DNA of 63,708 nt, filler included, from Sphacelaria rigidula (taxonomy: Eukaryota), in assembly GCA_964200075.2 (NCBI GenBank). It is 4 parts of 4 records of this genome, joined end to end, with 100 filler letters (N's around TTAATTAATTAA, not from the genome) between each part and the next. Parts side by side here need not be neighbours in the genome. Positions count along the whole stretch, not along the records: positions 15,960 to 31,811 come from CAXNAA020001567.1; positions 31,912 to 47,760 come from CAXNAA020001568.1; positions 47,861 to 63,708 come from CAXNAA020001569.1; 1 more part is not named here. One strand, 5' to 3'. The notes under the pieces are model-generated. The model was not told where the DNA came from, did not search any database, and saw only the letters and a list, made by a program, of their open reading frames with translations. The translations under genes were made by a program, and so were the position numbers. Positions 15,860 to 53,179 of this stretch are shown one piece after another; the first letter of the stretch is position 1; every line of letters starts with the position of its first letter.

Positions 15860-15959
15860 NNNNNNNNNNNNNNNNNNNNNNNNNNNNNNNNNNNNNNNNN
15901 NNNTTAATTAATTAANNNNNNNNNNNNNNNNNNNNNNNNNNNNNNNNNNNNNNNNNNNN
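15860..15959. other. Artificial contig linker N44-TTAATTAATTAA-N44
   Basis: 100-bp spacer with a palindrome giving stop codons in all six frames; identical at three positions. Confidence 0.97.
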
Positions 15960-21959: not shown

Positions 21960-22165
21960 GTACGCTTCGGACCGAGCAATCTTAGCAGGATGCAAATCAC
22001 TTCACATGCGACTCGCCGAACACATCATGGGTTTTCGCGCTTGGCGATCGATTACGAGCATAGTCCAGCGAAAACCCGGCGTGCCCCGTCCCAACTTTGT
22101 AGGGATGCAGGGTCAAAGGCCATATGACTACGACGTGCGACATCATGAATACACCCTTCCTCCGC
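21960..22165 (+). mobile_element. Long member of the poly(C)-tailed retroposon family (diverged)
   Basis: caatcttagcaggatgca...atgcgactcgccgaacaca...gcgaaaacccggcgtgc.ccgtccc...gtagggatgc...ggtcaa...atgacta...atgaatacaccc, matching the minus-strand copy at 9070-9310. Confidence 0.65.
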
Positions 22166-23213: not shown

Positions 23214-26200
23214 ATTCGGACCCGATCGAGTGAGCTACATGAAGCCCGTTGGTCAGAAGCACGTTACGGTCATCGGCAGAGACGGAGACAGTATCAAGGT
23301 CAGAACAACCCTCGTGGGCTCGTTGCTCGAACCATGCGTTGCCGCGGTTCATGTCATCTTCCGCACAAAATACGCGTAGTTTTTGCTGCACGAGGGTTAC
23401 TCTTGAAGCATAAGCTTCTACCTACTGCGATCGACAAACAAAAGCGCAGATCGCCCACTGACTATGTCGGCACGCGTACGGCTGTTTTCTGGGACAAGTT
23501 CGCTTTCTTATTTTGTTAGAAGCGGAAAGCATAGGTCCTGGTTTACTACATGGTGTGCGGGAAAACAAGCACGTGGCGAGAATTGGAAGCGTGGTGCGAG
23601 ATGCAGCAATGACTCACGTCCGCAAACAGGGAAAACAAAAGTCTCTGCACAAAATGTCGGGGCAATGGGTAGAAAGGGGCTGTATTTGCTGAGATAACCT
23701 CAGGTGCGCTCCGGGTGCTGTGGGGGACTTACGTTGTGCCGCGCCTCACTGATGATTTGGCACACGAAATGGAATGTCGAGGCATGTTCTTAGGTCCTTG
23801 GTTCGTCCGCTGATCCGCTATTGTTGCTTTTGCTGTCTTCAATGCTTTCCGTGGTGCTTTGACAATCTGCTGTTCTGAACTGCATGTGACGTTGGGCAGG
23901 TGGACAAAGATGTAGCGGTGGCGAAGGAGCACTTCGGTCTTCACAGTGCTTACGATGCTATGAGCCCCATTATTCTACACAAGGGTTACACGAGAGAGTT
24001 TCTCGACGGCAAGGTGTGTGCCTCTGTAGCCGTGAGCTTCTCCGTTCTATGCATCACAAGTGGCTAACTGCTTGGCCCATGATCCTTGAACGCGCTTAAT
24101 TAAGCTACGAAATACCTTTGCTTTCTGCCTTGTCGCGTCGCCCTCACGTTCTCAGATAAACCTCGAGGAACAAAAAACTCTTATCCGAAAAGCGTTCGAG
24201 GAACTGATCGAAAGCAATGACTTTGTGGTGGTGGAGGGAACGGGCCATACCGGTGAGACGCCCAGGCGTGTTACTTTCAACTTTGGTCCAACGAACGTCG
24301 TTTAGGGTACGTTGACGACTTTCGCTCATACGATAGTAGGTAACGTGATCCACTCCGTTGCAGTGAACGAGCGCGCAACACGCCCCGAAGTGCAAGCGGC
24401 CAACTGATGGACGATCGTGTCACCAGGCCACTGAAAACGCACGCGTCATGCGTGGCTTTTCCATTGAAACACGTTTTTTGCTCAAGCAGGAGTCGGAAGT
24501 ATCGTCGGCTTGAACAACGCGGACGTGGCAAGTTGGCTTGGGTTAGATGTCCTGCTGGTTGCTAACGGTGGTTTGGGATCAACGTACGACGTACTGGCGC
24601 TGAACCAAAACCTTTGCAACTCTAGGGGAGTGAGAGTGCGAGCTGTTCTCTTGAATAAGGTAAGTAATTGAACTTGAGTATATAGCCTACTGCATTAAAC
24701 TGCCGAAACCACTGGGTGAAGTCTCTCGGGGTGTGCCGACGGGCGGGATGAGCGTGTAGTGAAGCAGTCACCCCCCCGACCAGGAAATGTGGAATCAGCG
24801 AAGGGGGCAGACCCCCCCCATTATCTACGCCACTGCGATCATTTGCGTGCTCTAAGCGCAAAAGCGATTGCATGGCGTGGTGAAGTGGGTTGCGGTGCTC
24901 CGAGTGACATGTAGCATCTCGTTTTGTGATGCAGGTGAAGGCGGACAAAGTAGGCATGGTGAGGATGTACATTGGCAAGGCGCTGGAGATGAATTCTTGG
25001 GGTAAGTTTGATTTTTATGTAACAAAGCTATACGCCAGCAGAGATGGAGATATTGCAGCCACAGAAAAATAGTGTCGAACAGTGTCGAACACAGTAGGTG
25101 ATCTTGGTTAGCCCATTTTCTTGAAAGTAGGAAGAGTCGTGGTCATTGTGGTACATTAGGGTAGTGAAGCGCGATTTCTTCGTCGTGGCGGCACAATACG
25201 ACGTATGTGCCGTGCGGTACGTATACTCCCAAGTCTGGGTGCTCAGATAATGAATGCATGAACGCATTTTGTTGATGCACACTGACTAGATGCGCCTAAA
25301 CCGATATGCCCCAATCTAAAGATGCGCCTCTCCTCGGAGTGGTTCCATGGGCTGAGACGCTGGATCAGCCTTCGGTGCTGGACCTGGAGCAAATGTTTGA
25401 TACAACGGCTCTCGCGGGAAGGAAATGGTTGCTCCGCAGGTACCTTTTCACCCGTGTTATCGGATGCTCTCTGCTTCACTATAATGTGTTTATTATTTGT
25501 CTAAAATAGCAAGAGAACATGGCTTGTCTTTGAATTCGAGGAGTCAGCACATTTCCTGGTGCCCGCCACACGATCCAGTAAACGAGTCCAATGGCAACGA
25601 TTGGTTGCGGCGATGAAACCCAGCGTGTTGTTGCTAGCATAGTGAGATTTTCCCCAAAACTTGAAATTCGTACTTCGCTGAGTTGATGCCCAAGTCACTA
25701 CAATCCCTGCGGAGATACCGTGTCGTCCCAGGCTGAATCGCGAGTAACGTTGGCGTTTAGCTCGAGGACATTACTGTTTCACTACGACGCACGACATAGA
25801 ATCGCAGCGCGTGCGTGGTTTTCATGAGGTGTTGATTTTCGACTGTCGTGCGCCTGCTGCAGGTTCAACAGGTTTGAGTTGGTGACCACCAGCCTCCGAA
25901 GATTACTCGAAAAGCTCAGTGATGGGTCACTGCGTGGCTCCACGTGCTTCGTGACGCACGCCTCGAGGAATGATATTATTCTGGGTGAGAGAAGAGTGAC
26001 ATGGCATGATATTCCTTATTCGCTCATCGAGTTATTTTCGAATTTCGTACCGGTGTGCTTCCCCCTGACCTCAACAGGTGCTTCCTCCGTCTCGAAAGGG
26101 ATGCGTGGTCAATGGTCAAACGACTAAGGCAAGCAACAAATGAGTACGCCCCCCCCCCCCCCCTGACCTCAACACCGTTCTACCTCATACGCTCGTGATA

Positions 26201-26979
26201 CTGTACTCTTCGCTGCATGCATTCATATGCCGTTTGATGTGCGTGGTGTTTATTTTATGTCACCACGTGTGACGCTTCAAGCGCCTGCGCTTTGTGTCGC
26301 TGCGTTGGTATGTCCAGGCTTGCTATCCCACTCGGAGGACGCCAAGAACGAACGGAATTGCTCCCCTTTCGAAGCGGGTCTCATTCTAACCGGTGAGCAT
26401 TTCTGTCGCGTCGTGACTCAACTTATCGAAAGGGAATTGAAATCACAGTATTTTCCCTCTGGAGATTGCATTCCTGAAAGCACTCACCCCACCCATAATT
26501 GTCTATGCGGCTGGGTTCGACTGTCAACACCTAAATGTAATGGACTGACAAGGCGCGTGCTCCAAGACATCATACAAGTACTGTACGTTCCGCTGTATGC
26601 TCTCTATGAACGTCGGTGCTTTTGTTTCCTCCGACGAACAAGAGAGCATCTTCCTTCAGGTGCACATGCGAAATTACTGCGTTAGTTTTCACCATCTGGG
26701 CTGTCGAGTATTTTCTACAAAGTGGCAATATAACAGGAGATGGAAAACACAGGTACCCGCCCATTTCAAATCAAGACGTACTTTTGATTCCCACGCGCTG
26801 TGGCGGCACCTCCACGCCCCATGTCCCCGTAGTCTGGCGTTTCAAAGGGCTAACGGTAAGTCCGCCCACAATTTCAACAAACAGGATCGCCTCCAGGCAA
26901 CCTTCCTCACAGCTTCGTGGGGGATTATATCAGTCGTGCTGACATTCCGGTGCTCACCGTCGCGGTGTCAACAACAAAG
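23214..26979 (+). CDS. BioD-like (AAA_26) plus DRTGG-domain protein, resembling the N-terminal region of phosphate acetyltransferase; partial (first and last exons not found)
   Basis: Nine phase-compatible GT-AG exons: 23214-23298, 23900-24013, 24156-24252, 24490-24659, 24935-25001, 25322-25439, 25863-25984, 26318-26392, 26885-26979. They encode VSYMKPVGQ, VDKDV, DFVVVEGTGHTGVGSIVGLNNADVA, LVANGGLGS, VLLNKV, LLGVVP, VTHASRNDIILG, GLILTG and IPVLTV. Confidence 0.88.
26077..26163 (+). mobile_element. Short poly(C)-tailed retroposon with 16-bp TSD
   Basis: Flanked by direct repeat CCCCCTGACCTCAACA (26061-26076 and 26159-26174); body near-identical to 47961-48034 and 52962-53040. Confidence 0.85.
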
Positions 26980-27602
26980 GTGAGTCAAGTTGTTGAACGC
27001 GATTGTTGCCACTGTAGTGTGATCCTTGGTGGTAATCATGCATGAATGGTTTGGTGACGTCATGATCACTGCTCACCCGGATGCAAGTACAGAAGTGTTC
27101 TAACATCTCTACAATTGCTTGGCTATCGAGCTGTGATCGATGCAAAGCATAGTGACCAGATACCCGCTTCAAACATTGATTTCCTTTTCTCAATTTCTCC
27201 GTCGGTTTCATCCCCAGTGATGACAAAGCGGCAGTTTCCTGATCAACGGTCTGGTCCCACGAGTTACATTCCACATTCCATCTCAATATATCGTCTGTCC
27301 CAACAGCACTGTAATGGTCCAATATCAAACACCCAACATCATCCCCGTGTAGAGCAGGTTCACGTCTACAGTGCAATGTAGTCTTCGAGTATGTGCCGTG
27401 TCAGCCCTGATCATACGCTGAGCTGCCTCAAGCAAGCAGCAGTGCTGGTTTCCAGGTCCATATGCCAGATCGAACAAGGAAATCTGAACCATGCACGGAC
27501 TCGCAAGAAAAGCTTGCTTGTTCGTGAAAAGACGAGCGCAAATGGCGAAAGTGGAAATACCGTAAAACAGAGAAAAGGCATATTTGGAAATCGCTGTGGA
27601 AA

Positions 27603-27969
27603 ATGTGTGTGTTGTATGCTGTCATCCCATCTTTTCCGCACGCCAGTCTACATCGTTGGGTCCATGTGGGCACATCAGCCAGGGTCACGCCGGAGTGGGG
27701 TCAACACAGGGGTTTCTATTTGCATTGCGTCCTTAATACCCCACCTTCATTATGCGGTGCCTGCCTTTAATTTTATCGCGAGAAGGGTTCAGCGCTTCAT
27801 TTCCGTCATCGACCGTGAACTCGAACTTTGTGTGCCCATGACATTGTCGTTCTCCATCATTAGGCATGATGTGAGAAAAAATCAGAACGTGTGACTTTAC
27901 CGAGATCCGAACCCACGTCCCAACCGTCAGAAGGTTTCGAGTTTTACCAACTGAGCCATCGGGGCAACC
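27603..27969 (-). mobile_element. Full-length tRNA-derived SINE
   Basis: The reverse complement reads ggttgccccgatggctcagttggtaaaactcgaaaccttctgacggttgggacgtgggttcggatctc, then body and CA-rich tail. Confidence 0.8.
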
Positions 27970-28809
27970 GACTCGTGGAAGAGTGGACTTTGTGATTGGT
28001 ACGAGACAGGGAAATACTGGCCATGAACAGATGAAAAACACGGCATTGCCCCGTCAAAAACAAGAAAGGCGCTGGCAAGTTGTCAGCAGCTAGAAGGGGT
28101 ACAGCTCAGAAACCGAACACTGGTCAGCTCTTCGACAGGGGGCGTTGCCTCGACACAGTTTCACAAGTTGACAATTCAGGGACATTCGGGGGTTTCCAGG
28201 GGGCAGGGGCCTGTTCGCACAACAGCCGAAAAGCTCACCAAGTCGACCATGTGTGTTGAGAAGTTTCCCACGGAAAATCATCAGCCAGGAACGAGGCCCG
28301 AGAGGAGGCGAGAGACAATTGTGACCAATCATGGCTATCGAAATGGTCACTTTGTTTCCCTACAGATGGACTACAGTTGAACCACTTGGCTGTGTAGCCG
28401 TGTTTCTCATCCTGGTCACGACAGCTCAACCATACATGACATGGGCACGAATGACACGAATGACGTGCTTTCTACTCTGTCCGTGGTCAATGGCGCCTGC
28501 CTGACCCCTCATGTGTTGCAAGCATAGCTTCACACTAATGCTACAGTGGAACACGAAGTAGAGACATGAGCAGCATGCCGTAGACTGTGTTCGGTGAAGA
28601 GCGATGGCATGCAGCACAAATACTGACTGCACGCAATAGACTGCAGGGTAAAAGCCGGTCAGAGGTTCTCCGGGACTATTTTCTACAGATTGCTCTGCTT
28701 CGCATCGCGCGTCCAATTTTGCTATCCACTCTTACATTGTAATGGAATGGAAAAGGGACAGAACATACAGACGCCCTCAATGAAAAAGAGCAAGAACGGC
28801 ATACAATCA

Positions 28810-29250
28810 TGTAAACAGTCAGCAACAGCACATTTTCGGTTGCTATTTGACACGCACGAGACCACCTTTCATCCATACTGGATGGATTTCCGTCGAACAA
28901 AGGCTGTCTTGTGTGGATGATGAGCCAGCGCTTGAACAATCCGCGTGAGTGGTGGGTGTCTATGCGTCGGTTTTTGTGACTCGGTGTTTCGGCGCTGTGC
29001 TACCTCGTTGCGCCTTGTCCGCAGCACTGTAGAAATATTGGACTAACGTCGACTTTCAGAACCACCGCGTTGTTTACCTGTGCACAGATCTGGGCTTCGA
29101 TCTAGACATGACTGCTTGGCTAGCACTACAACTGTTGAGGCACTCTCGAGCGCACATCGCACCGTGATCGTCGTAGAGTATTTAGATGCACAACACCACA
29201 GCGACAACTACAGCATAGAAATGATGAGTGTGGGAAGTGCCTTGTTCGTT
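28810..29250. repeat. Dispersed repeat shared between contigs
   Basis: About 28810-29105 matches the reverse complement of about 62660-62960; about 29164-29250 matches about 692-776. Confidence 0.7.
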
Positions 29251-29398
29251 TGACTCGAGACGAAATAGCCAACACACCATGCAAGTGTAATGCGTGAGAG
29301 GAAAACGGTCAAGCGATAAAAAAACAGGGAAACATTCCGACCACCTGACTATTTTTGTAAGCATGCAGCAGTATCAGCGGCATATAACGTAACGGGCC

Positions 29399-29540
29399 AG
29401 GTGCATGGGTAATGTCGCACGACGAAACGCGGACCGCCTCCCGCACGAGAAGCAGCAGCAGCAGCAGTAGCAGTATCAGCAGCATATTTATTGCCAGTAA
29501 ATGTACGCGACTGGTGGTGGGTCGGAATCAGCCGGTGCCG

Positions 29541-29576
<36 letters not shown>

Positions 29577-30027
29577 ATCGTAGACGGTCCGCATTTCGAC
29601 CGTGCGATAACACCCACGCACCTTGCGAGTGATAGCCAGTGTGCTGGACAGCGCTGGGTACGTACTACCCGCCGATGGGCCCATGATTGCTCACTCGGCG
29701 AAGTTCTGGGAGATAAAGCTGTGCGCGTCTCTCTGTGGGAGCTGTGCACGTGGAGTGTGTCTCCCACGCGTGGCTACTGCAACAAGAGAAGCAGCTGATG
29801 CATACTGTATACAGTCCGTGTTCAGGTTCTAAAAAACACTGCAGAATTGTGTTGTGTTCAGTGTAGTACCCTGTACTCCATATAATGGGGTCACGTTTTG
29901 GGCAGTTTTTCGAAAAGTTCTGCTTGTTTTTTTTCAAGTATTCTGAAAATAACGGGACTTTTCTGTCACAGAAATCCAATGCCGAACTTGGAATAGCCTG
30001 AGACAACAACTAATTTGAAAATTGGAA
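29399..30027 (+). mobile_element. CAG/CTG foldback element, second copy
   Basis: Hairpin 29399-29623 colinear with 20606-20866; ends in the shared ...tgagacaacaactaatttgaaaattggaa terminus. Confidence 0.8.
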
Positions 30028-31364: not shown

Positions 31365-31571
31365 AAAATTCGACTTAACGATCGACGAGGGAAAGCGAGT
31401 GCTGAACCCCTCTCGCGATAAAGAGTAAAGGCAAGCACCGCAGAAGGAAGGTGGGGTACTAAAAAAAAATAATACACAAAGTTCCTGTGTGACCCCGGCT
31501 GGTGCGCCCACATGTACCGAAAGGTGTAGACCGGCGTCCAGAATAGGTGGGACGACAACACACAACACACA
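31365..31571 (+). mobile_element. 5'-truncated tRNA-derived SINE
   Basis: aaaattcgacttaacg.tcgacgagggaaag...ctgaacccctctcgcgataaa...gggacgacaacacac, matching about 19152-19370. Confidence 0.8.
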
Positions 31572-31811
31572 AATAAAATGTACACAAGTACAATCACATC
31601 GAGGTGAATAGCAGTACAAGTATCATAATGTATCATACATGATATATTACGTACCGGTATATTAGAGACAAGATAATGATGAACAAAAAATGTAGTCACA
31701 GCTCGTTGTATTTACTGTATATATATGTCTAACTAAGATTACGTGTGAATGCTCCCGTGCAAGCAGGACAATTAGACCTACTCATAAAACAGTACACTTA
31801 ACAAACCCCTT

Positions 31812-31911
31812 NNNNNNNNNNNNNNNNNNNNNNNNNNNNNNNNNNNNNNNNNNNNTTAATTAATTAANNNNNNNNNNNNNNNNNNNNNNNNNNNNNNNNN
31901 NNNNNNNNNNN
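31812..31911. other. Artificial contig linker N44-TTAATTAATTAA-N44
   Basis: Identical 100-bp spacer. Confidence 0.97.
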
Positions 31912-32746
31912 CTTCTGGTGTTCCTGAAATCCCCACAAAATCATCAGCGAACATCAATCCTGATACCATATCCTCACCCTCAGAGAGGGGGAGGGGGGAG
32001 GGGTGTAATGGCCTGTAATTGGTGGGGTACATTGTTATGTGCTGTCTATAAAATATGATTGGAAAGGCCTAGCGGAATTCTGACCATGCTTTGAGTTGCT
32101 CGACAGTGTTTTCACGTTACGGAGCCATGATCTAAATAACGATGGAAAACGACATCATAAAAATTGACAAGGATGGTTCGCGCAATTTACAACGGTTTTC
32201 ATGTGCTGTACAGAATGAGAGATCATGAAGACCGTTCCAAGTGTCATATTTCATGACCCTGTGACCATCATTTGAAGTGTCATATTTTCCAATCGGCGGA
32301 GGTCTCGAGGTAAGCATGAGCTTTCTTTCAAACTACTGTTATTCGCAGCACGAGACTCGACCTGAGAAATCCAGCAGAACAGCAGCTACTGATTTGAGTT
32401 TCGAAGCTCAAGCGTAACCTGCGTCGGGTAGATCTAGACGCCAACTCAAACCGTTGAATGTAAAATAGGTGTCCGCTACTACTGTACTCCAGCAAGAATG
32501 AAAATCACACCTGTCTCGCCATCATTCGAATCCATATCTCCTCTGGTGCGTGCCTGACACCACACTCAGTACACCTTCAATAGCACCAGTACAATCGACA
32601 GACAGTAAGACCACTTACGAACACCACTGCACCCTACGGTCGGTATGTACGATTGGCACGTCCACTTGACCGAGCAAAAGATCGACCGAAGAAAACTAAA
32701 TCCACAAGTGATTTCTCCCGCAATAATGATGATGCAACAATCTCAC

Positions 32747-33118
32747 CTGTAGAAAGTACCGCCCATCGGTCCATAATAGTGCCTCGTTCGCAGTCACCAA
32801 GGCCGTGCCTGCGGATCCATTGAACCCTGTTAACCACGCTCGTCTCTTATCATGCTCTGAAACGTATTCGCTCTGATGGGCATCTTGCGTCTCTACTAGG
32901 TAGGCCGAGAGACCCCGCGTTTTCAAACTTTCCCTCAGTTGCGACAGCCGCTTTTCTGGTGGCGACCCAATATCGTTGAAGGAAGTATTCGCGACAAAGT
33001 TATCGACAGCGTTGCTGCCCGATGGGGCAGTAGCCACTGCAGCAGAACACGGGCTTCCATTGCTGTCATTGCCTGAATTGAGATGAGCCAGGCGGGCTTT
33101 CTTCAGCACGGACGACAT
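32747..33118 (-). CDS. Xaa-Pro aminopeptidase (aminopeptidase P, M24B), 5' exon encoding the creatinase N-terminal domain; remainder probably beyond the contig end
   Basis: RLSQLRESL..LSAYLVETQDAHQSEYV..DKRRAWLTGFNGSAGTALVT..ALLWTDGRYFLQ followed by donor CAG|gtgaga. The start ATG at 33118 is the first in-frame ATG and is uncertain. Confidence 0.9.
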
Positions 33119-36900: not shown

Positions 36901-39900
36901 TTAACGTCGAGATGATGCTAGTTTTTCAATGCCCTCGAGTGGTTTTTTCGAAGACGAAACGCGACAGTTTTTGTCGAGAGAAATGCCCGGTGAGCATCCA
37001 TATCTACTTCTCATCATCCCCCGCATCCCCCTCTGATTTTTTTTCAACCGAGAGGACTTGCACCCATGCACGTCTCGGTCACGGCTGTAGGTGTTTTGGT
37101 TGTGTTGCCCAAAAAATGTCGCTGCAAAACGGTTGACTTTGTGCCGGTAGAGGTAAGTAAGAGGCCAGCTTTTTTTTGACGGTACAAGATGACTCCCATG
37201 CCTGATGCGTGACAGGAGGAGGATGAAAGCCCCGCCCCGAAAAAAGCCAAAGCAACGCCCCCCTCGAAGAAGGCTGAGGTAGCAAATGGAAAAAAGGCGA
37301 GCAAGGAGTCGTCCAGCGAGGAAGAATCGGATGACGACTCGGATGATGACTCCGAGGTCAGACGGTTCACGACAGGAGCGCTTTTTTTAAACTTGCGGTC
37401 GGTCACGGACGGGAGGATGAATGCCGAGGTTTTCAGTGTATTTTCCCCCTCAAATTGCTGCGAATGGTGTGCAGATGAAATTTTTCTTTTTCGACCTTCT
37501 CGATGTTTCTAGTCGAGAGCTGACGTGTGGATTCGTCCATGAAAATGCCCGGTGAGCATCGACCTTACTTCATGCCCTCCCCCCCTCCCCCCCCTCCCCC
37601 CCGACACACACATACACACATACACACATACACCACTATCTATCCAAATCTTGGGGACTTTCATCCAGCCATGTCCTGGTCACGGCTGTGGTGGTTTGGT
37701 TCGCGTTGCCCAACAATCGTAGCTCTTGAACCGTGAGCCTCTGGCGAGTCACAGCATTCACGTCGGAAGGGCGACTTATTTTTGAGTGTACACGACGACA
37801 CCCGTGCCCGTTGCGTAACAGGAAGAGGAGAAGAGCCCCGCTCCGAAGAAGGCCAAATCGAAGGCCTCATCGAAGAAGGCGGAGACAGCCAACGGGAAGA
37901 AGGCTGGCAAGTCCAGTAGTGAGGACTCGGACGAGAGTTCCGACGAGGAGGAATCTGAGGACGAGTCGGATGATAAGCCGGAGGTGATCACGGGAAATCA
38001 AGTGTCCACGGTCTCCTTGAAGTCGCGTGGTCGTACTCCAGATTCGTGTAGCTACTTTCCGGCCGTGAGGCCTAGTCACGTGTCTGGTATGCTCAAGATA
38101 CGGTCCAATCATTTGTTCCCGTGGGGCTTTGGGGTGTGTTGCTCATCACGTATACTTCTTTTGCACATTGTTCTTCCTCTCCCCTCCCCTTCCCCCCCCC
38201 CCCCCCCAACCCCTCTGTCTCCCTCGGGAAGACCAAGAAAAAGCCGGCGGCGTCTAAGTCGGCGGCGAAGGAAGACTCTGACTCCGAAGATGATGACGAC
38301 GACGATGACGATGATTCTTCGGAAGATGATTCGTCCGATGAGGAAGAGAAGCCCAAGGCGAAGGCGGTGGCCTCAGATAAGAAGGATGGTGACGACGATG
38401 ACGACTCTTCGGAAGATTCGTCTGAGGAGGAAAGCGTGAGTTTTGGTCGGACGTCGTGGACTTTTCTCAGTCCTGCGTCCAACTCTTCCCTTTATCCCCG
38501 CAAGTGTCCTCACGATTTGATCGGGAATTTCTATAGACATGAGTTCCTACCTCGGCAAGGGACTGGTGTGTAAATATGAACTCGAGTCCCTGGTGCCCTG
38601 ATTTTCGTCACGTGGGCATGACCGGATTGCATCTTGTGTACACATAAGGACAGAAATCAAGGCAGTGTATTGAGCGGTCAAAGTCTCCGGCATTTGAAAC
38701 GCATTATATATACAACGCCTTCGATTTTTTCGTGCAGGGCATCAAGTGGTATCAAGGACGCAAACAGGTGTGCCTGTCTCTTCGCGTCATGTGCCCCCGT
38801 AACGGTTTTGTTCTCTCTCTCTCGAGGTTCGTGGAGCTCGGTGTCCTATGATTACAAATCTATGCACCACTCCAGAAAGCATCACATGTGGAAAAACAAC
38901 CTGATCACCATCTTTCGTATGAGGATCCGCCGCTTGCGCTCGAACAGAGAGGGAGGATACGGTTCAATTTTAGCCTGTTTCTGCAATGTGTATTGACAGT
39001 CGATGTACTCGGCGTCGTGACTTATTCCCGTTTTTTTCAGTCATCAGGGTTCGGTCATGTAGAGCACGAGTCGAGTCTCTGTCCATGATTTACCCGGAGA
39101 GGTGTCCAATGATATCATAATAATACGTGAACTGAAATACGATTCAATGTGGTACTATTATCGCTACGTATGAGGACATCCGTTATGGGGAAGAGATGTG
39201 GAGACGTGCTTTTCGTGCACACGACGTTACTCGATTTTCCTGCACTTCGGGGAGTGTAAGACATGAATGCCGAGGGTTCCCTTTTTTTTCCCCGGGCCAA
39301 ACATCCCGTAACTTGAAGTTGACCTCAAAATGTTCCCGCCGGAATGATGTTACGGTATCGGATCTCACAACGTTTACACAGCCAATTCTCGATTCTCAAC
39401 GCCCACGGACGATGCGGCAATTATTTGCATATCTCTGTCATTTGCGTCTACATGTGGCCTACGTTGTAGACTCTGTGAGGTAATTCCTTCGATTTTTATA
39501 AGACCATGATGTGATCCCCATATAACTGTATTGTTGCCTGATATTACTTGATGGAAGCAAATGTAAAATTCGGCGATGGTATGTACTCGAAGTGCACCCT
39601 GCGCCGTGAAGAGAACAGAACTCGTGGGTACCACCCCGTCATGAGCACGAACCCTTACACGATGGTCTGTACCCCGAGGTGACGGGGTACGCATTCGATG
39701 TTTACCGAGTTACGCGACCCCAGACTGACTGGCCGCTAAGTAGTTGAGATTCCCGACCTCGGAAATTGGAACCCATTTTTTCCCCTGGTGGCGTCTCTAA
39801 TTCTCCGGCTGGTTCCCCGTGATTACAAATCTATGCACCACTCCAGAATTATCAAGTGTGGATAAATCACCTGATCACCATCTTTCGTATGAGGGAAACC

Positions 39901-42900
39901 AAGCTTGACTCGCCCTGAGACGGGCCCCCGGCACAAAACTTTACCCGTACGTTGATTTGGTATCCTGTTCCGGACCATTCGTCCCCTTCCCGCATATTTT
40001 CATGCATCCCGGGACGCCGGGTATATGGCAAAAGGCAGAGCTCGCGATTTGGGCCCCCCGACCCCGCGGTCACATAACTCGTGTTTCTCGAACAGCGAGT
40101 CCGGCCGTCCTCTCTGAGGAGTCATTTTGGACCCATGATGAGCTGTCTCACGTGTCCGAGAGTCCAGTACTGTGCGAGGAGGTTCGAGAGCCTTCATTTG
40201 GCTTGCGGCATTCGTGTTTTTTGTCTGGTTCCCCGTGATTACAAATCTATGCACCACTCCAGAATTATCAAGTGTGGATAAATCACCTGATCACCATCTT
40301 TCGTATGAGGGAAACCAAGCTTGACTCGCCCTGAGACGGGCCCCCGGTACAAAACTTTACCCGTCCACTTTGATTTGGTGTACTGTTCCGGACCATTCGT
40401 CCCCTTCCCGCATATTTTTCTTTCTGCATCCCGGGACGCCAAGTATGTGACGGAAGGCAGAGCTCGCGATTTGGGCCCCCCGACCCCGCGGTCACGTAAC
40501 TCGTGTTTCTCGAACAGCCAGTCCGGCCGTCCTCTCTGATGAGTCATTTTGGACGCATGATCAGCTGTCTCACGTGTCGAGAGTCCAGTACCGTGCCAGG
40601 AGGTTCGGCAGCGTTCATTTGGCTTGCGTCATTCGTGTTTTTTGTCTGGTTTCCAGTGATTACAAATCTATGCACCACTCCAGAATTGCTATGTGTGGAT
40701 AAATCACCTGATCACCATCTTTCGTATGAGGAAACTGGCCTTGAATTCTTGGGACTCCGCCGTTGTCTCGTGGCGTCCCTCTATGTTTTTCGCGCGCAAA
40801 AAGTGTCTTGAGGCCAATCATTGGCGTCGTGTTTTCAAGCTTGTTCCTGATGTTCCCTCCATGCACGAAATATGAACATGGATGCGGCAGGCAAGGGAGA
40901 TTCTGGACGATGTCCTTCTGGCACTAGTCATTTTCATCCGTCGCTCTGCTAGGAATATTATTCAGTCAGCACACACTGAAGGTGTCCAACATTTTGACTA
41001 TTCCCTTCTGGATTCATAGTTAGCTGGCTGGAGTGCAATGCTTCCTACAGCCGAGTCTGCCAGCTGTATACCTGAGCCGGATCTTGGGAGCACTGAGCGC
41101 CCCTGGTTTCTGCTAACATGAGACGGCTACATGTCGTTAGGCGGGGAGGGAACTGTCCAAGATATCCTTGTCTCCGTCATGCGTCGTTTTTAATGTTGGT
41201 AGTTTTCTTATACCCATCTTGGTGTACCGTGTGTATGACAGTCTTCCGAGCAGATCCTACCCTTGTAGCCGATGCTAGTGCTGTTTTGGCTGCGCCCCTC
41301 TGCCTGGCGGAGAAGAGGGGTCCCGGAGAACGTCGTCAGCTGACCGGGATGTTATTCCTGGTCCTGACCCAATGTGATTTTGAAGTCAACGGAGAAAATG
41401 AATCGCCATCATCGGTGCTGTACAAGTGATTTCCCCGTATTGTCGGTGTCGGCATTTGACCCCTGCGGTATCTACATCGCGGACCATTGTTGTGGTCTTG
41501 CCTGTTTTCGACTCGGAAGCGGGCTGTCGCGGTAGTTATTTCGCCTCTTATCCGATACTTTCGGTGATCGTCGGCGCTTGTCTCCCTCCCTGTGTTTTCT
41601 GACAGGATGATGCAGCGAAGAAGACCGAGAAGCCGTCGAAAAAGAGGAAGGCAGACGATGTGGAGGAGGAAGCTAGCGACGCCAAAAAGGTAAATGTCTT
41701 TTCCGTGTACTGTGCGTGCGTGTTGTGGTGTGGAGAAATATACGTCGAGCATTGCGAATGCTTGACATATCGGATAGGCAGCTCATGAGCTGTTTGGATC
41801 TCGAGCTTCTTTCAGCTGCGAAGATTTTCGGATCACGAGCACTGAAAAGTTCATGAACCGGAAGTGCACCACCTCACGTAATTTTGTTATTTTCTATTTT
41901 CCCCCCCGTCTTTTCGGAATGGAAAAATGCTGTTGTTTCTTTCAACGTTTTCTTTCCTTGGCTAATTGTCCGACATTTTGTATGTTTTTTTTTTTCTGAA
42001 ATCGGCGTTTTGCTTCACAGTCAAAGGGTGGTGAGAACTGCAAGATTTACCTCCGAGGTCTTCCGTGGGATACAGAGGATGACGCCGTGAAGGATTACTT
42101 CAAGAAGTGCGGAAAGGTACGTGAATGAATGTGTGCCAGTCTACAACTTTCAGTGTATGTGGGCTCATCAGCTGGAGTCATGCAAAAAGGCTCAACACGA
42201 CAGTTGATGTTTCAGTACTCCGTATTCCTTTTGCGGTGTTCGCTTCGTTTTCCATCGAAGGAGTTTAGCAGTCCCCTTCCCTCGTCGACCGTAAAATCAA
42301 ATTTTGTGTACCAACGACATGGTCGCTTTCCACTGTTGAGCTTCGTGTGAGAAGGAGTCCCAGATCGCGTGGCTGCACCGACATTCGAATCCACGACTCT
42401 ATTTTTCGGAAGGATTCGAGGTGACCGACTAAGCCACTGGTGCAATAAATTAAAATGGAAGCAACATTTTTACATGGCATATGGTCGATGCGCTGTATTC
42501 GATAAGAGTAACACGCATGGCCACAGTGTTTCTGCTGCTGTCAGATGCAACTTGTGTCCGCCGATGAAGTACCAGCACCACTCTGCGTTTTTGAGGGATG
42601 GAATTGAGCGTCCGAGTGTTCTCGAGCGAGTTTGAAACAGACGAATGCTCTGTGATCCAGCACGTACTCACACCGTATCCGGAGTTATTGACGGCGCACG
42701 GAAGTTCAAGCTTGGGAAGAGTGCTTCCTACTCCGCAGTCTACTTCGCAACAATGACCTGTGCACACATTTCCAGCCTTTTTGATCGAACGACGTGAAAG
42801 TAGCCGTGGGCTGGTGAACGAGCTATCATATTGTGCAAACTACATGCCGAATGTTGGCACGCGACATCAACCCCGTTCTATTCTGTTCTTATGAGCGTAA

Positions 42901-45573: not shown

Positions 45574-46979
45574 AACTGTGAGGTAGACTGTGTCGCGGGA
45601 TCCTTTCCCCCTCGGGGCGTCGAGCATCTGCTTCCTTGCCCTCGAGTGTTATATGTGAGTGAGCGTTTTTTTTTCTTGTCGAGTGGGGGACAGGGATGGC
45701 CAAGCAAGTTTTTTCTTGTTTTCCCTGCAGTTGGTGGTTGTTCTTGTGTAGAGTGAGATTTGTGCGCGTGTTGTATCATTTATGCGTGATTCGCGGTTCA
45801 AGTGTCGTCTCCGGGTATGATTTGATCAACGTGTGCCACGAGAAGGGGATGATAAAGAGATGTTGCGTATTGTTGCTTTTTTTATCTTGTCAAGGTTTCA
45901 GATTGTCGAGGCTTTCGTGCATTTGTCACGTGGCGCGGTAGGGCAAACGGCCGAATCTGAAAGCGCTGCTGTCGTTTTGACTGAATGCGTGGAGTGGCCG
46001 TTTCACAACTCAGCGTCAGTGTTTGATGTAAATCCATGCGAATCAGACCTCTGGTGGGAATTGATGTTTGGGGGAAATTGGCAAACGCCGACTGTTGGTT
46101 CTCACGTTTGCAGGCATGCTTGGTTCTATTTCATGAAGAGCGTATGCGGGGCGGACGATAAATCCTCCGTGTCATTGGCTAACGTCCGTCGACCCTACCT
46201 GACCGTGATTTTTTCTGTGTTGATATGCATGGCTTTTGCAATGCGCTTGAGTGGCCGACTAAACGGAAAGTGCTCAACCCAGTCGCGAAAGTATTTCAAG
46301 TTGTAGGCCAGGGTAAGTCATGAGTTGGGCTAGCACCGGCGGTGGCGCAGCAGTGTTGTTTGACTTGAGGAAATCGATTTCAGTAACGAACAGCTGTGCT
46401 TTTAGTCGGGTGGGGTACTGAGCATGGTACATGGAGGTTCGTGTGATCGATACTGTAGCATGTATGTTCTAACGGCCAGCCTCGGCAGCTTTCTGCAGAC
46501 GTGTGCTCGTGTTGATGTTTCATGAATTCCGAGAACAAGACTATCGAATATGATTCAAGTTTTCTCTACTCTAGCCCCGAGAGCGCCTTGTAACAACTGA
46601 CTACCGCGTTGTTTTCGACAGCCAGCACGCACCAGCTGAGGGGCTGGATAGTACTCGTGACAGGGAGCGGAATTTAACCTTGAGCACTGGCCGTGTCCAT
46701 CGCTTGCCATTCGGGGTCTCACAACCCTACTGCTTCATCATGACATGAACTGTCAGATGTGGTTCAGGCTATGATTTCCGCAGGGTAGTTCCCCCTGTAA
46801 TCTTCCCTCGTGACTGGTGTTCTTTGACTGTCGGTAGGTACCCATCTCATGGCGCGTACCCCGCTGCCGAAAGCAAGTGTAATTGGACTAGCAGCGTTCA
46901 ATGTCACCCTCGCTCCAACAACAAAGCGAAGCACCCACGAGCCGCTCGATGATGCTTCGTAACCTTGGGTCATCACTCA

Positions 46980-47635
46980 TGGGGTTTAATTTCCATAACT
47001 TTTTTCGAGTTGGAAACTCCCGAGTTTTCGAAAACAGACGCTGAGGCCGGATGTCATGGCGAACGGATTTTTGGCCCACGGATTGCTCACTTCTGGTATA
47101 TTTCAGTCACTTTTTGACCCCCAAATAAGGAAAATCGTCATCACACGTCTTGGACACTCGCATCACCCCACAGAAAGGAGCCCGATCTGCGTTCCAGATT
47201 TGCTTGGCTCGTTGATTTCGAGATTGACCGCAAAACGAATATTTGTACGCATAAATTTGTGCTTACCGATCCACAGGTTATTGGACAAACTGGCGGGGGT
47301 TGCGAAGGACAGATTTTTGCGCACGAATTTTTCGTTCGGCGGCCGAGTCAAAACCTCGGAGCCAAGGGAGCGTGAAAAGCAGACTAGGCTTCTCTCTGTG
47401 GGGTGATGCAAAGTGTCCAAGACGTGTGTGGACGATTTCCCTGTATGGGGGTCAAGAAGGGGGTCAAATGTACCACAAGTAAACAATCCGTGGGCCAAAA
47501 ATCTGTTTGCCATAACATCCGATCTAAATGACAAAAGACGGAACGCTACGTGGGTTCTCCGCGTAGGATCTGGTCAATCTCCAACTAACAGCCGATTCTC
47601 GAAAATGGGGTTGAAAAAGAATGAGGTTAAACTCA
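46980..47635. mobile_element. Foldback/MITE with long imperfect inverted arms
   Basis: 47048-47182 (cggatgtcatggcgaacggatttttggcccacggattg...cttggacact.gcatcaccccacaga) is complementary to 47387-47521, with weaker outer extension. Confidence 0.8.
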
Positions 47636-47760
47636 ACAGTCGTGCTTTCCCTGACCTGAATTCAAGACAAACGACTTTCATGTTGACCCCCCACCATCCC
47701 TCCCGACCTCCTTGAAACTATTTCGGGGGATTTCTAGCCTTCCGTTCCCCCAAAGGGTAT

Positions 47761-47860
47761 NNNNNNNNNNNNNNNNNNNNNNNNNNNNNNNNNNNNNNNN
47801 NNNNTTAATTAATTAANNNNNNNNNNNNNNNNNNNNNNNNNNNNNNNNNNNNNNNNNNNN
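47761..47860. other. Artificial contig linker N44-TTAATTAATTAA-N44
   Basis: Identical 100-bp spacer. Confidence 0.97.
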
Positions 47861-47861
47861 A

Positions 47862-48045
47862 ATCCGGCGTGCTCCGTCCCGGCACTGTGGGGATGCGAGG
47901 TCAATGGTCTGATGACTATGGCATGCATGATCATGAGTACACCCACCCCATCCCATCCCATGCTCCGTCTCGAAAGGGATGCGTGGTCAATGGTCAAATG
48001 ACTAAGGCAAGCAACAAATGAGTACGCCCCCCCCATCCCATCCCA
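47862..48045 (+). mobile_element. Two poly(C)-tailed retroposons: a short copy (47961-48034) inserted in the C-rich tail of a long-family copy (47862-47945)
   Basis: TSD CCCCATCCCATCCCA at 47946-47960 and 48031-48045. Confidence 0.8.
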
Positions 48046-48417
48046 CCTTACCCCAACCAGAGCAAATCAAAACCAAATCAAACAAAGCGACTTCAAGTGA
48101 GGGAAAAAAAAATCCGTGGTAGTCATTGTAAAAACAAATCTTGTCCCGCCCGTATGCTACGTTTCTAGCGAATTCGCCGTGAGCCGACAGGCGGTTCAGG
48201 AACAAGACGTCGAGCTTACTCCATCCATTGTGATCGTGATTGGAATTAGCCGAGAGGACGCGAGGCAGCGAGCCTCGCTGTAATCAAAGAGACTGACTGC
48301 TGCACATCAGATTAAATCGCCAGCATGTGGTGACGCGCTGAAGAAGCACAACACATATCATACGGGGCACACGCGACCATTCGGCTACCCCCATAAATAT
48401 CCTCTATCGCGATTTTC

Positions 48418-48713
48418 ATCCTCTCGAGGGCAAAGTGACCCTCCGGAGGATAAAAATACCCTCTAGAGGGTATTTCATACTCAGTTCCGACCATAAAACG
48501 AATCCTATAGAAGGCATCTTATGCTCCAGTGACTTCTGAGATCTGAATCCCTCGAGAGTAACACAAACTATGGTGCTCTGGAGGGCTGCGCATCCTCCAA
48601 GTTCCTCCAGAGGGTGCGCGGCCCTCCAGAGGCTAAACAATCCTCTGGAGGCGTTTGATCCCGTCCCTCTGGAGGGCCGCGCACCCTCAAGAGGCGTTTA
48701 ATTCCTCTTGAGG
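48418..48713. repeat. Array of about ten short palindromes CCTCnnGAGG
   Basis: cctctcgagg, cctccggagg, cctctagagg, ctctggagg, cctccagagg, cctctggagg (twice), cctcaagagg and cctcttgagg, with irregular spacers. Confidence 0.75.
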
Positions 48714-49077
48714 CTCAAAAAGTTGACCGAAACAGATTTTTTTGGGGTAGCCGAATGGCCGCGTGTGGGCAAATGAGTGTGGGTGGGCATGTGCAGTGGC
48801 ACATGATACGAGCACCTGCAAATAGCACTCCAGACACTACCGTATCACTCGGGGTTATATAGCACCCCTGATATCACCTTCATAACCATGGTGCTCGTGG
48901 CACCGAGAGCTACATGGCCGGAGATATCTTCTCGAGATCAGTGTACATGGACCTGACCTTCCACTCGGGAAGGTCCCTCCTCTCCTCCTTGACGAGATCT
49001 ATCTTGGAACAATGACGGCAGGGGATGCAATAATCAACAACCCTGCGGGGTTTCCGGTACTTTGTTTTGTCTCTCAC

Positions 49078-52000
49078 CAGACGACGCAATCGAGTCTGGG
49101 GAAGGTGTTGCGCTGTCTGAGGTCGTGGACTCCGGAGTCGGAGTGGGTACCGTCATATCGTCAGAGGTGCTCAACTCGGTACTCTGCGCTTCCGTGGAGA
49201 CAGACGTTGGGCTCGCTGCCGCGAAGAACGTTCGAGCGCAAGACAAACACAGGGAATTGGGGCGGGGGAGGGGGGGGTACAGTACAACCATGAGCTACAG
49301 ATAGGGTTAGTGGGAACACACTGCCTGCCTGCTGGGTATACGGTGGTGGGACGAGCCGACAAACTGTACTGGTAAGCGTGCCGTGCGGCGCCTACCGAGT
49401 GATACGAAGATGAGATGTACGACAGAAACTACATGAGTTCCGGAATACCGCGTGTATAGAAGTCATTGATTGCTCGCTGCAAAGGGACGGGCAAGGTTGC
49501 ATGACCGTCCCGGCAACGAGTGAACACGGACCCCTGCCTGCCGGGGAAAATAATCTCGACGAGGTTGGCCTACTAGCCGGATTTTGACCGACTGCACCGT
49601 GTTTTCCCTTCTTCGTGACGATTATGAGTAGACACTGTGCCACACGTGACTCGTGATAGACTGCAACGTTGTAGGTGCGTGGGGAGTGGTGGGTCCTTAC
49701 AAGTGCAGTCGATGGTCACTGACGTCTCTTCGGGGTCACAATCCTCACAGCCAAATTCAAACCAGGTCTCGGTTATCTCCGTAGGGTGGTCTGCGCAGTC
49801 CGGCGTCTGTTTTTTTCGTCGTTCGCGCAGCGCAGGGCAAACGACGAATCACAAAGTATCGGGTGAGAAAGTATACACATAAGTATATGATTTATATATA
49901 TATATATATATATCACATACTTTGAAACGGCGCAGACAGTTATTCACGGTTCGGACGAACCATCGCCGGTTCGTATCACCAATTTCACGATTTTTTAGAC
50001 CTGATCGCTCGACAGCAAGAACAAAGTTGACCGCTGATCAAAGAGGGTTCCACGCATTTTTATTGTGTCATTCCACGTGCCTGAGCTAGCTGCGCGTGCC
50101 TGGGTTGCAACGCTGAAAACAAACCTTGAGGATTGATTCATACAGTACGAATCAACTACACTAAAATCAAGTAATTTCCGGACGAATCATTAATTCGTCC
50201 GACCCTTGCAATTGTGTCCACGTGTTATTGTGCAAGTGATGCCGATGAAGCGAGCCGAGGAGCAGTAGGGTAGGTGTTGCGTCGCGCTTCAGCTGACTAG
50301 AGTGCCCTAAGGATCAAACGACCCTGCCAACGCAGTAGATAGCTCGAATGTGACCCATCTCGTCGTTGTAGTCGGCAATGGCAAAACTGGCATACCGTCT
50401 ATTCGCATTCGTGTACTCTGTCAATGTATGCGTGGGTCGGGCAACGTCTAGAAATAAAAGAGACAATCTTCTTGTCTAGGTAAAGGAAAGTTATTTTTCG
50501 CCTACTCATACCCCAAAACGACAACTAGTACCCCTCTGACAGCGCGGCTGATATCTTCGAAGTGTTAACATCTGCTATTGACGATGTTTTTTTCAAATGA
50601 ACCATCTTTTTGCACAGCGTTTCGCGGCAGGTTCTATCCTGCGGTCAAGAAGACCCCCAACATGATGTCGCGCGGGAAGAACATTACCATAAAAGCACAC
50701 AACGAACAATTCTAACCATGTAAAAGGGATAGATAGTCTCGTCACCGCTTGCAAGGTTAATCCAGAAACCCGATAAGCATGCCGCAAGGGACCGCCCCTC
50801 CGCCCGCTCCGCTCGACGCATGGCGTGGACCACCATGCTGCGCGCGCCGTCGAGCACACCATCCGGCAACCAAGTTTCTCGTTGACCTGCCGAAGTTATG
50901 GAGGATGACTATGACACTTTGGTAGTGGCGACCATCCTGTGGGTCACGGGTGGGTCCGTCGTGGACAAGGTGCCATATTCGCACGCCAAAAAGCAACACC
51001 AGCTGCCGCTAGCAATGGAACAGATGATACCTTGCTCAACCGCGGTCGGCTCCTTCGTGATCATGGAGGCAGTTTACGACTCAAGTTTCGGGGATTGCGA
51101 TACAGAGCCGAGCGGGGTTAGTAAGTTGATGGGCGAAGCTACCCAGCCATCCACTTCGGACAAATGAGCGTGCCGTCGGTGAACATGCTGCCATGAGGTT
51201 GATAGCGGCTCCACCGATTCACGGTGGTCATGAACACTCATGACTACAGCTATTCTGGCGCAGTTTCCGCCCCTGAAAAAGCTTCAACAAACAATACTGA
51301 AGGTTACTGACTCAACACCAGCCATCGGCAGGAGAATGTATCGACCTGAAGACGGATTTCCGAGAACTATAAAACATTTTACACCAACCATGTCTCGTAT
51401 GCGAACATCGTCTGTGGATCGAAGGAATGCGGATTTTGTTCACCTTGCGACCTGAGTGTTACTTGTCGTAGCGTCAACTTGCGCAAGCATAAGCTAGCAT
51501 TCTGATTTGAACATAGTGGCCAACCTACCTTCCTAAACCGAAGCGCCACGTTCGTTCGTCAGATTATTCACGAGTAATTCACCACATGCAGCACCAATGA
51601 CGTCGATATTTGACGTTGATGGGACGGTGATGATATGTTGCTGATGAAGGTGCTCAGTAGCACGGCCACTAACGTCTGTGTCGTACTGCAAGACCTAGCA
51701 ATAATAGAGGTATCTCGAACTCGGCTCCCGGTATCCCGGTTTATTCGCTGGCTCTGAGTGAGTTATGTACTATTTTTTTCAAGCGAAAGTGATCGCGATC
51801 CATAGGCGCGGACCTGACCTGGCGGTGAAAGGGTCTCATTATCTGATGAATCGCCATCACTTTCACTTGAAAAAATAGAACAAAACAAACCAGGATACCG
51901 GGAGCCGAGTTCAGGATACCTCTAATAGCACTAGGACTAACTAATGGATCGCCCTGGATACTACGAGATGCTACGGCAACCTCACCTTCCGCTCCGTCCT

Positions 52001-52159
52001 GTGCAAGCTTTCGGCGGGTCGTATCTTCAGCGAAGATTAACGTGTACAGCTCGCCACCCACGGTCATGACGTAGGTAGGTTTGCCGTCATTAGGAGTGCC
52101 CTGGTCTTCGTAGAGACCTGGAGCCACGCCCCCCTCGATACTCAACGCCGAGCACGTCT
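49078..52159 (-). CDS. Unknown protein, partial: Cys-containing domain followed by a Ser/Thr/Pro-rich (mucin-like) stretch; possibly extracellular
   Basis: Five stop-free, phase-compatible GT-AG exons: 51986-52159, 51583-51675, 50332-50417, 49701-49806, 49078-49215. They read TCSALSIEGGVAPGLYEDQGTPNDGKPTY..RRKLA..AIYCTPDCADHPTEITETWFEFGCEDCDP..TIDCTSSPTSVST. Start and stop not identified. Confidence 0.55.
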
Positions 52160-52961
52160 CTGCCATGAGTGAATTCGGCCAGGAACACAACAAGAGACAC
52201 GAGAGGAAGCACGCAAGACATCAATCATCACGCACCGTACCCCACCGTGTCCTGTGATATACCAAGCAGAGCTATGGGGGCATGATTGCAAAAGCCACTG
52301 GTCTTTCCTCACCATCCCACACGAGTCAGTTCGCAATGCCAAACACGTGTTGGTGTCGTCCAAGACTAAAGCTGACTCTTCCCGGTGTGAGTCGGGATCT
52401 GAGGATGTCCGGCGATCTGATCTGATAAAAACAGGTCACCAGATTTGGTGCAGATATGACCAGAAATTAATTCGTCGGTCCCCTCTTACACGGTTTTGGG
52501 TATCTGGATCGTGAAAACGTTTGCTCGAGTAACCGATGCATGCCGACGATTACGGCCCAACGCCTTCTTGATCACAGTTTCGCCTCACTGTGTCCCCATG
52601 TGCGCGATGACAAAATCATTGCCTCCTAGGATAAGAGGCACAACAGCGCTCGAGACAAGAGGAGGAAGGCAGGAGCGACCTCGCGTCAAGTTTTGCATCC
52701 CAACGACAAGGCGTGCTGGCCCAGAGTCATGACTGACGGCACGCAATATGTCAGCGCTGAGCGTCCCCACGAACAGGCCGGCTCTAAGGCACAGCCCGCA
52801 CAGTTGCCAGAGAAGGACAAGCACGACGTTACTACTGGTGATCCTCTCGAGGAACGACTCGCAAATTCCCTACATCCATCGATGCTACTGCTTCTGTCAA
52901 GTCCACCGCTTATCGAGTCTCCGAACTGGTGGAGCAGGGACCACCCACCCCCAGCTGGTAG

Positions 52962-53040
52962 GTGCTCCGTCTCGAAAGGGATGCGTGGTCAATGCTTACA
53001 CAACTAAGGCAAACAACAAATGAGTACGCCCCCCCCCCCC
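52962..53040 (+). mobile_element. Short poly(C)-tailed retroposon with 14-bp TSD
   Basis: Direct repeat CCCCCAGCTGGTAG at 52948-52961 and 53036-53049. Confidence 0.85.
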
Positions 53041-53179
53041 AGCTGGTAGATCTCTGAGCCGGGAGAACGACAGCACCGGCACCAGTACCGACGATGGTGA
53101 AAACGTCAAGAGCGCCTTCGCCCGCACGTCCGGGCCGACTGCCCTTGATCGCACGCGGCGGTAGATTCGTCTCCAACGG

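Follow-up and report, generated by a model that had tools for sequence, protein, structure and literature searches.

Poly(C)-tailed units in the brown alga Sphacelaria rigidula, probably tail-only copies of an RTE-X-like LINE

The C-tailed units and their flanks

A 63,708-nucleotide stretch of DNA from the brown alga Sphacelaria rigidula, called the window below, carries three near-identical short units, all on the plus strand, that share their sequence with the 3′ end of a long interspersed nuclear element (LINE). Each is 66–72 nt in length and ends in GAGTACG followed by a run of C. Copy 1 (26077–26158) comprises the LINE 3′ module at 26077–26148, which ends in ATGAGTACG, and a tail proper of about 10 C at 26149–26158; copy 2 (47961–48030) has its module at 47961–48026 and a tail proper of about 4 C; copy 3 (52962–53035) has its module at 52962–53028 and a tail proper of about 7 C. 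The same ATGAGTACG closes all three, and the C-runs behind it measure 15, 8 and 12 in copies 1, 2 and 3; the final 5, 4 and 5 C of these belong to the 3′ copy of a flanking duplication, and what lies beyond the duplication is the tail proper. At the other end, copy 1 begins at 26077 (GGTGCTTCCTCCG, with a 4-nt extra), copy 2 at 47961 (TGCTCCG) and copy 3 at 52962 (GTGCTCCG); the homologous start position agrees to 2–3 nt across the three.

The original prediction had placed three near-identical repeats here, and counts and alignment confirm it. A 30-mer from the body of the unit occurs 3 times without mismatch in the window (0.00 expected from 100 shuffles), the 3′ 18-mer AACAAATGAGTACGCCCC also 3 times (0.07 expected), and blastn aligns copy 1 to copy 2 at 98.5% over 68 nt and to copy 3 at 92.6%. 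The private changes of copy 3 are clustered at 52995–53004; at 52995 and 53002 most contigs of the sequencing runs described below differ from it, as a minority of them do at 52999. Chance similarity or an artefact of assembly might be put forward in explanation, as three gaps with linker sequence adjoin repeats in the window; but none of the 100 shuffles gave a single 30-mer match, and the unit recurs in public contigs of independent origin and in four sequencing runs that stem from three studies. That explanation is contradicted, and its probability is negligible.

Each unit is bordered by an exact target-site duplication (TSD) of 16, 15 and 14 bp in copies 1, 2 and 3, and every one of these opens with CCCC(C). 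On the plus strand, CCCCCTGACCTCAACA stands at 26061–26076 and 26159–26174 around copy 1, CCCCATCCCATCCCA at 47946–47960 and 48031–48045 around copy 2, and CCCCCAGCTGGTAG at 52948–52961 and 53036–53049 around copy 3. Each string occurs exactly twice in the 63.7-kb window, both times directly bordering its own unit. When the surroundings of every C or G run of at least 6 in the window were scanned for the same pattern, six rows were returned: four are the three units and a longer element at 9078, and of the remaining two, the row at 37587 is a C-rich low-complexity self-match and that at 40476 a tandem repeat. Retroposition of the copies had been proposed from such features, namely a poly(C) tail, targets opening with a C-run, and TSDs of variable length whose first bases match the tail; all are present in three of three copies.

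The parent LINE, its partner and their relatives

The unit consists of the last ~20 codons of an autonomous LINE (coding end NGAPSRKGCVVNGQMTKASNK, then the TGA stop), GTACG and (C)n. On the metagenome contig L019 it closes a 686-aa open frame with the same terminus, in which Pfam finds RVT_1 (E 2.9e-33). Homologous sequence precedes the unit on L019 and on L041, which are partial LINE copies; L041 and L120 show the arrangement of L019, and the total tails are C8 (L019), C11 (L041) and C13 (L120). The full-length example is L121, a contig binned in a bacterial metagenome-assembled genome (MAG): an unbroken frame of 1382 aa with Exo_endo_phos at 193–415 and RVT_1 at 763–1012. In L120/L121, GAGTACG and C13 come after the LINE frame, and unrelated sequence begins behind them. 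Copy 2 is 100% identical to the L121 LINE over 74 nt, and 100% identical also to the last 19 aa of a database protein, P0052; copy 1 is 98.7% identical to the LINE over 77 nt and has a tblastn match to the last 18 aa of P0052; copy 3 is 90.7% identical to the LINE. The original prediction of a separate ‘mini-retroposon’ has therefore to be given up, as the unit is the extreme 3′ end of a LINE; its companion idea, that a LINE supplies the machinery, is upheld by L121, an autonomous endonuclease/reverse transcriptase (RT) element with the same 3′ end.

The LINE has a single open reading frame (ORF) of ~1360 aa, with endonuclease, RT and a C-terminal Cys/His motif, and the ORF stops 5 nt short of the poly(C) tail; the nearest solved structure is human ORF2p (E 6.6e-21). 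P0052 (1360 aa, 90% identical) and a second database protein, P0053 (76% identical), both carry Exo_endo_phos (PF03372) and RVT_1 (PF00078). A third, P0054, is a chimeric Ectocarpus gene model that includes the C-terminal half of the LINE (71% to L019, 92% to P0053). All three share one C-terminal peptide with the L019 frame. Proteins that are ~76% identical overall hardly differ in the last 21 residues of the ORF, which fits a cis-acting RNA signal overlying the coding sequence.

The LINE of L121 lies at 116–4261 on the minus strand of a contig whose bin is labelled uncultured bacterium; the contig is most likely algal DNA, mis-binned. The MAG holds a single copy of the unit (one real match of the four listed). 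The contig shows no TSD around the full-length copy, which leaves the LINE without a defined 5′ boundary. On the strand-oriented contig, a diverged, antisense unit-like piece is seen at ~590 nt, upstream of the ORF by ~475 nt. Scanning metagenome contigs with a gapped 18-base pattern gave at least 119 loci, among which blastn recognised L019, L041 and L088 as relatives; the other 116 of the loci listed are chance matches by the same measure. The same search for the unit pattern gave one locus in a collection of genome contigs, the LINE copy in the bacterial MAG, and none in a collection of viral contigs.

The organism of the window appears to carry this LINE itself, to judge from contigs of four runs that contain the window (X1, X3 and X4, DNA-like, and X6, RNA-like), which were compared with it over 47861–53400. 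Contigs that run upstream of 52961 (214 in X1, 151 in X3, 191 in X4) share the consensus GTTGGAGGTGTCTCTATTAGGAGTAGGAAC, and this matches exactly what precedes the unit in the LINE on L019, L041 and L120. Behind 48034, contigs run on as (C)n and then as unrelated sequence (658, 358, 579 and 64 in X1, X3, X4 and X6); behind 47944, in an older long element, the same is seen, poly(C) giving way to diverging sequence. For X1, depth adds up to 1.18e7 and 1.2e6 in the two unit bins, against ~46–105 in single-copy bins, values that do not stand for copy number. A joint 48033→47961, which goes back 73, is made by 8, 1 and 6 contigs in X1, X3 and X4, and many joints lead from 48029–48034 to 52961–52965; joints such as the first imply arrays of unit, (C)n, unit.

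Copy 3 is present in X1, X3, X4 and X6, with contigs entering it from both flanks, and X4 has several single-nucleotide differences from the window nearby; copy 2 is present in X1 and X3, in contigs that start inside it. An X6 contig joins 50884 to 51984 in the manner of a spliced intron; X6 therefore behaves like RNA. As X6 contigs enter copy 3 from both sides, copy 3 would lie in a transcribed region (50717–52160, 52629–53400); these contigs show read-through across units only and have no bearing on a C-tailed RNA end. An antisense open frame at 52910–53560, on the minus strand, passes through copy 3, and is a candidate only.

An internal piece of the LINE is found in the window as well, on the minus strand at 31912–31979: it covers the ‘MFADDF’ region of the RT, at 81–82% identity to residues 906–927 of P0052, with its 5′ junction after a C-rich stretch and the remainder lost in the gap at 31812–31911.

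Comparison of the window with itself reveals a non-autonomous partner of ~580 bp. The best copy, of 583 bp, lies on the minus strand at 9078–9660, ends in GTGTACAT and C7, and is flanked by CCACCGCCCC at 9661–9670 and 9070–9079. An older, 5′-shortened copy lies on the plus strand at 21762–22156, is 74.6% identical to the first, and ends in ATGAATACA and CCC; no TSD is recognisable around it. Of a third, also on the plus strand, the 3′ end is present at 47861–47950, ending in ATGAGTACA and CCCACCCC, its 5′ side being cut by the gap at 47761–47860. Homology between the long element and the LINE is confined to the last ~70 nt, from GTGCTCCGTC to the tail, at 80–86% identity. Copy 2 of the unit sits 11 nt behind the C-rich tail of the third long element, and on L088 a diverged unit directly follows the tail of another; such positions would be accounted for by C-runs being the targets.

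The long element also contains two copies, 92% identical, of a 50-nt motif, GGTCCGGCGARAACCCGGCGTGCTCCGTCCCGGCTTTG: one lies in the head and the other where the 3′ module begins; positions are 9605–9655 and 9136–9186 (minus strand), and 22057–22107. The head accordingly holds a second copy of the hairpin, hairpin 1, that is predicted at the start of the module. This repeated motif, with CTGATGA and GAAA in the long element, had prompted consideration of a Penelope-like or hammerhead retrozyme, and that candidate was rejected: in 47861–48100 no hammerhead family of Rfam matched even at E≤1, and the endonuclease of the partner enzyme is of the APE type, not GIY-YIG as in Penelope.

Elements of this kind are already on record. 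The curated Ectocarpus transposable-element table in the supplement to ‘Characterization of the transposable element landscape shaping the Ectocarpus genome’ (PMC12477816) describes RTEX-1 and RTEX-2_Ec32 as ‘single EN-RT ORF; (C)n 3′; TSD C-rich’, with ‘(C)n termini/TSD’ in the comment on RTEX-2_Ec32; RTEX-N1a_Ec32, of 607 bp, is given a ‘60 bp 3′ end 83% RTEX-1_Ec32/RTEX-2_Ec32’, a TSD that is ‘C-rich’, and the remark ‘can be present in tandem’; lengths are 604–607 bp for RTEX-N1 and 188 bp for RTEX-N2_Ec32. An earlier description of the family, which the original prediction had named as a ground for its own refutation, is provided by these entries. Frequent 5′ truncation of Ectocarpus LINEs is stated in the same paper; dividing its totals by its counts gives mean copy lengths of ~352 bp (RTEX-1b), 619 bp (RTEX-1a) and 1223 bp (RTEX-2), for consensi of 5.5–5.9 kb. 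The copies in its Tables S10 and S11 are a biased subset, differentially expressed, and are uninformative on tail-only copies.

The listed properties recur in our material: a single ORF with an N-terminal APE endonuclease and then RT (L121, P0052, P0053); a (C)n 3′ terminus (C15, C8 and C12 in the window; L019, L041 and L120; run contigs); a C-rich TSD (CCCC(C) at the three units, CCACCGCCCC at the long element); and a ~600-bp partner that shares only the last ~60 bp at ~83% (here the 583-bp element, at 80–86%). Heavy 5′ truncation is common to both algae as well (PMC12477816), and the same LINE C-terminus is contained in the Ectocarpus model P0054. Like RTEX-N1/N2_Ec32, the 583-bp element joins a head of its own to a 3′ segment of ~70 nt that is 80–86% identical to the LINE tail, and it has a C-tail and a C-rich TSD; the ‘tandem’ remark on RTEX-N1_Ec32 (PMC12477816) comes close to the LINE units seen behind long-element tails (47861–48034, L088). 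The three units of the window differ in being headless and in matching the LINE rather than the N1 version of the module. The NB-ARC/TPR gene of the window differs too, as it is only ~41% identical to named Ectocarpus proteins; from that identity, the LINE of the window may be a sister family in another brown alga.

Insertion at G-runs and the common 5′ end

The perspective we favour, and consider very probable, takes the units to be extremely 5′-truncated, tail-only copies of a brown-algal LINE of the RTE-X kind with an APE-type endonuclease, made by target-primed reverse transcription (TPRT). TPRT from a presumed nick at a G-run is well supported by the anatomy of the insertions. In APE-type LINEs, a TSD that opens with the tail base places the bottom-strand nick 3′ of the complementary run. 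The bases that precede the TSDs of copies 1, 2 and 3 are t, a and a, and yield the bottom-strand sites 5′-GGGGG↓AA, 5′-GGGG↓TGG and 5′-GGGGG↓TGG (the arrow marks the nick). That is, the endonuclease would cut the bottom strand just 3′ of a G-run, 5′-GGGG(G)↓A/T-3′; the RNA would anneal through its C-tail to the exposed Gs, which would then prime cDNA synthesis; a top-strand nick 14–16 bp downstream would yield the duplication; and reverse transcription, or its template, would end ~66–72 nt in, at the 5′ edge of the module common to the LINE and its ~580-bp partner. With a G-run nick and C-tail priming, every TSD should open with CCCC(C) and merge with the tail, as each of them does. The tail itself may be templated, from a C-tail presumably present in the RNA, or extended by slippage; variation in its length is expected from slippage or imprecise register.

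Other kinds of insertion fit poorly. A DNA transposon, a miniature inverted-repeat transposable element (MITE) or a templated repair insertion could end in a C-run by chance, and an unrelated inverted-repeat element with C/G-run ends does lie at ~10990–11236; but the units lack terminal inverted repeats, TSD length (14–16 bp) and tail length vary, and an ORF for an RT ends in this very sequence, all of which leaves this alternative with next to no probability. A classical short interspersed nuclear element (SINE) is rejected, as no tRNA-, 5S- or 7SL-type head was found: ARAGORN detects no tRNA gene in the window, and Rfam gives no match at gathering score in the window and none at E≤1 in 47861–48100. 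The original prediction had foreseen the missing tRNA head. An L1-like poly(A) retroposon is rejected also, as tails and TSD starts are C.

The likeness to L1 lies in the mechanism: L1-type TPRT (poly(A) tail, nick at 5′-TTTT↓AA-3′) likewise pairs a homopolymer tail with a nicked homopolymer target, produces TSDs of ~7–20 bp that open with the tail base, and commonly truncates at the 5′ end. It differs in that the window LINE has a C-tail, a G-run target and a 3′ untranslated region of only 5 nt, and in that its 3′ module is conserved and common to a non-autonomous partner. The shared module suggests ‘stringent’ recognition of the 3′ end, by analogy with the eel UnaL2/UnaSINE1 pair, where 3′-end recognition is stringent. 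Among Ectocarpus elements, RTE-1/2 with (CAA)n and CRE-1 with (CA)n (PMC12477816) similarly have a non-A 3′ repeat that matches the target, whereas the repeat in the window is a mononucleotide, C.

Several points weigh against the reading as truncated LINE copies, or limit it. The nick consensus is drawn from 3–4 sites, those of the three TSD-bearing tail-only copies and one long element. Assignment to RTE-X is by four of five defining features, compared by table description, and the clade is the published annotation of the Ectocarpus relatives. The full-length LINE comes from metagenome and MAG contigs rather than from the window's own assembly. A search for an empty (pre-insertion) allele, which the original prediction had called for, found none in contigs of the four runs on 47861–53400, and among the rows listed for those runs there is no deletion or joint that removes copy 2 or copy 3; the insertions look fixed in the available samples. 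The TSD evidence is independent of that result and stands on its own. The module folds into two small conserved predicted hairpins, in which only 1 of 14 pairs shows a compensatory change, and its RNA fold is no more stable than shuffled sequence (z −0.28 to 0.06). Lastly, starts that agree to 2–3 nt in three of three window copies are unlike random 5′ truncation.

The common start deserves a closer look. The sequence (G)GTGCTCC begins four of the five readable LINE-derived 5′ junctions, namely those of the three window units (26077, 47961, 52962) and of L088; the fifth, at 31979, starts elsewhere. The start coincides with the onset of homology between LINE and long element, and it is the first paired base of predicted hairpin 1 (UGCUCC...GGAUGCG), which is kept in 9–10 of 10 aligned sequences with a loop of GAAA in the LINE and of 9–11 nt in the long element. 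We read it as a preferred stop of the RT at the edge of the recognised module.

A second perspective would treat the ~70-nt unit as an independent non-autonomous retroposon, a ‘mini-SINE’: the RTE-X RT would mobilise in trans a short, discrete RNA that is released by cleavage at the base of hairpin 1 or whose transcript has a defined end there, and the units would not be abortive LINE copies. Each of the coincidences just described speaks for it, as do the run contigs in which unit, (C)n and unit follow one another from the same start (48033→47961, and 48029–48034 to 52961–52965). Yet most of these joints leave the letters in between undefined, and longer copies may hide there; no diagnostic difference separates the unit from the LINE (copy 2 at 100% and copy 1 at 98.7% to L121); such a unit can hold no promoter and has no Rfam or tRNA match; and the same pattern would arise if the RT preferred to stop at a 3′ module that is structured and protein-bound. 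We regard a family of this sort as quite unlikely. It is doubtful too, though worth stating, that the 66–72-nt module with its C-tail may be a complete cis-signal for the RT and circulate as a discrete short RNA, its 5′ end being set at the base of hairpin 1 either by cleavage or by a programmed RT stop. Were that so, no shorter self-sufficient retroposon family would be known for a stringent-type LINE than the tail-only units, which would form tandem arrays by insertion into each other's C-tails. The table comments of PMC12477816 are, as far as consulted, silent on such an RNA.

On the reading of the units as truncated LINE copies, little new biology is involved: the (C)n tail and C-rich targets are recorded for Ectocarpus RTE-X in the same table (PMC12477816), where tail and TSD are given as comments without discussion of mechanism, and the mechanism is not new; the window copies are added examples of a kind of LINE known from Ectocarpus. 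What they contribute is clean, young instances of the target geometry, with a probable G-run nick and a 14–16-bp stagger; an indication from sequence that a putative cis-acting 3′ module extends over the last 20 codons of the ORF; and a hint that 5′ ends pile up at the boundary of the module (common 5′ end, GGUGCUCC). In practice, such units should be masked as LINE/RTE-X and not as a new family.

Homopolymer runs and other features of the window

The family had been expected to help explain an abundance of poly(C)/poly(G) tracts. The abundance is not found in number, as runs of at least 8 are as frequent for A/T (19) as for C/G (19), the C/G runs being longer (to 31) and not commoner. The explanation holds for 3 of the 19 C/G runs, which are tails of LINE units, and for the 7-run at 9078, the tail of a long element; it fails for the rest, so that unit tails account for some, and not most, of the long C/G homopolymers. 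Neither a recognisable TSD nor LINE-tail homology was found at G31 (10351–10381), C24 (15795–15818), C16 (38192) or G13 (60777). The runs at 10997, 14497, 56108 and 63605 lie near one end of an unrelated repeat of ~245 bp, with a C-run of 9–14 near one end, whose copies are at 10990–11236, 14490–14735, 56084–56231 and 63605–63705 (reverse); the ends of the copy at ~10990–11236 are inverted repeats (CGCGATACC with a C-rich run, and the complement), which gives it a MITE-like appearance.

The units are associated with assembly breaks. The 100-base gaps at 15860–15959, 31812–31911 and 47761–47860 each consist of the linker TTAATTAATTAA set between N-runs; the first lies 41 bases past the C24 run, and the other two interrupt RTE-X-derived repeats (31912–31979 and 47861–47950).

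Long ORFs are few in the window, which resembles intron-rich eukaryotic DNA. The sole long ORF, at 12112–14100 on the plus strand, encodes a 662-aa NB-ARC and TPR protein (P0001), whose best relatives among named brown algae, all of them unnamed products, come from Ectocarpus, Laminaria, Pylaiella and Scytosiphon (~30–45% identity); unnamed Logan proteins reach 55–60%. By these relatives the source is a brown alga or closely akin to one. An interspersed repeat of ~300 bp is present in five copies of 67–84% identity (6943–7244, 19072–19368, 27613–27963, 31365–31574 and 42135–42440), some of which adjoin A-runs. At 39809–40734 there is a tandem repeat with a period of ~416–418 bp, its two units being 92.8% identical.

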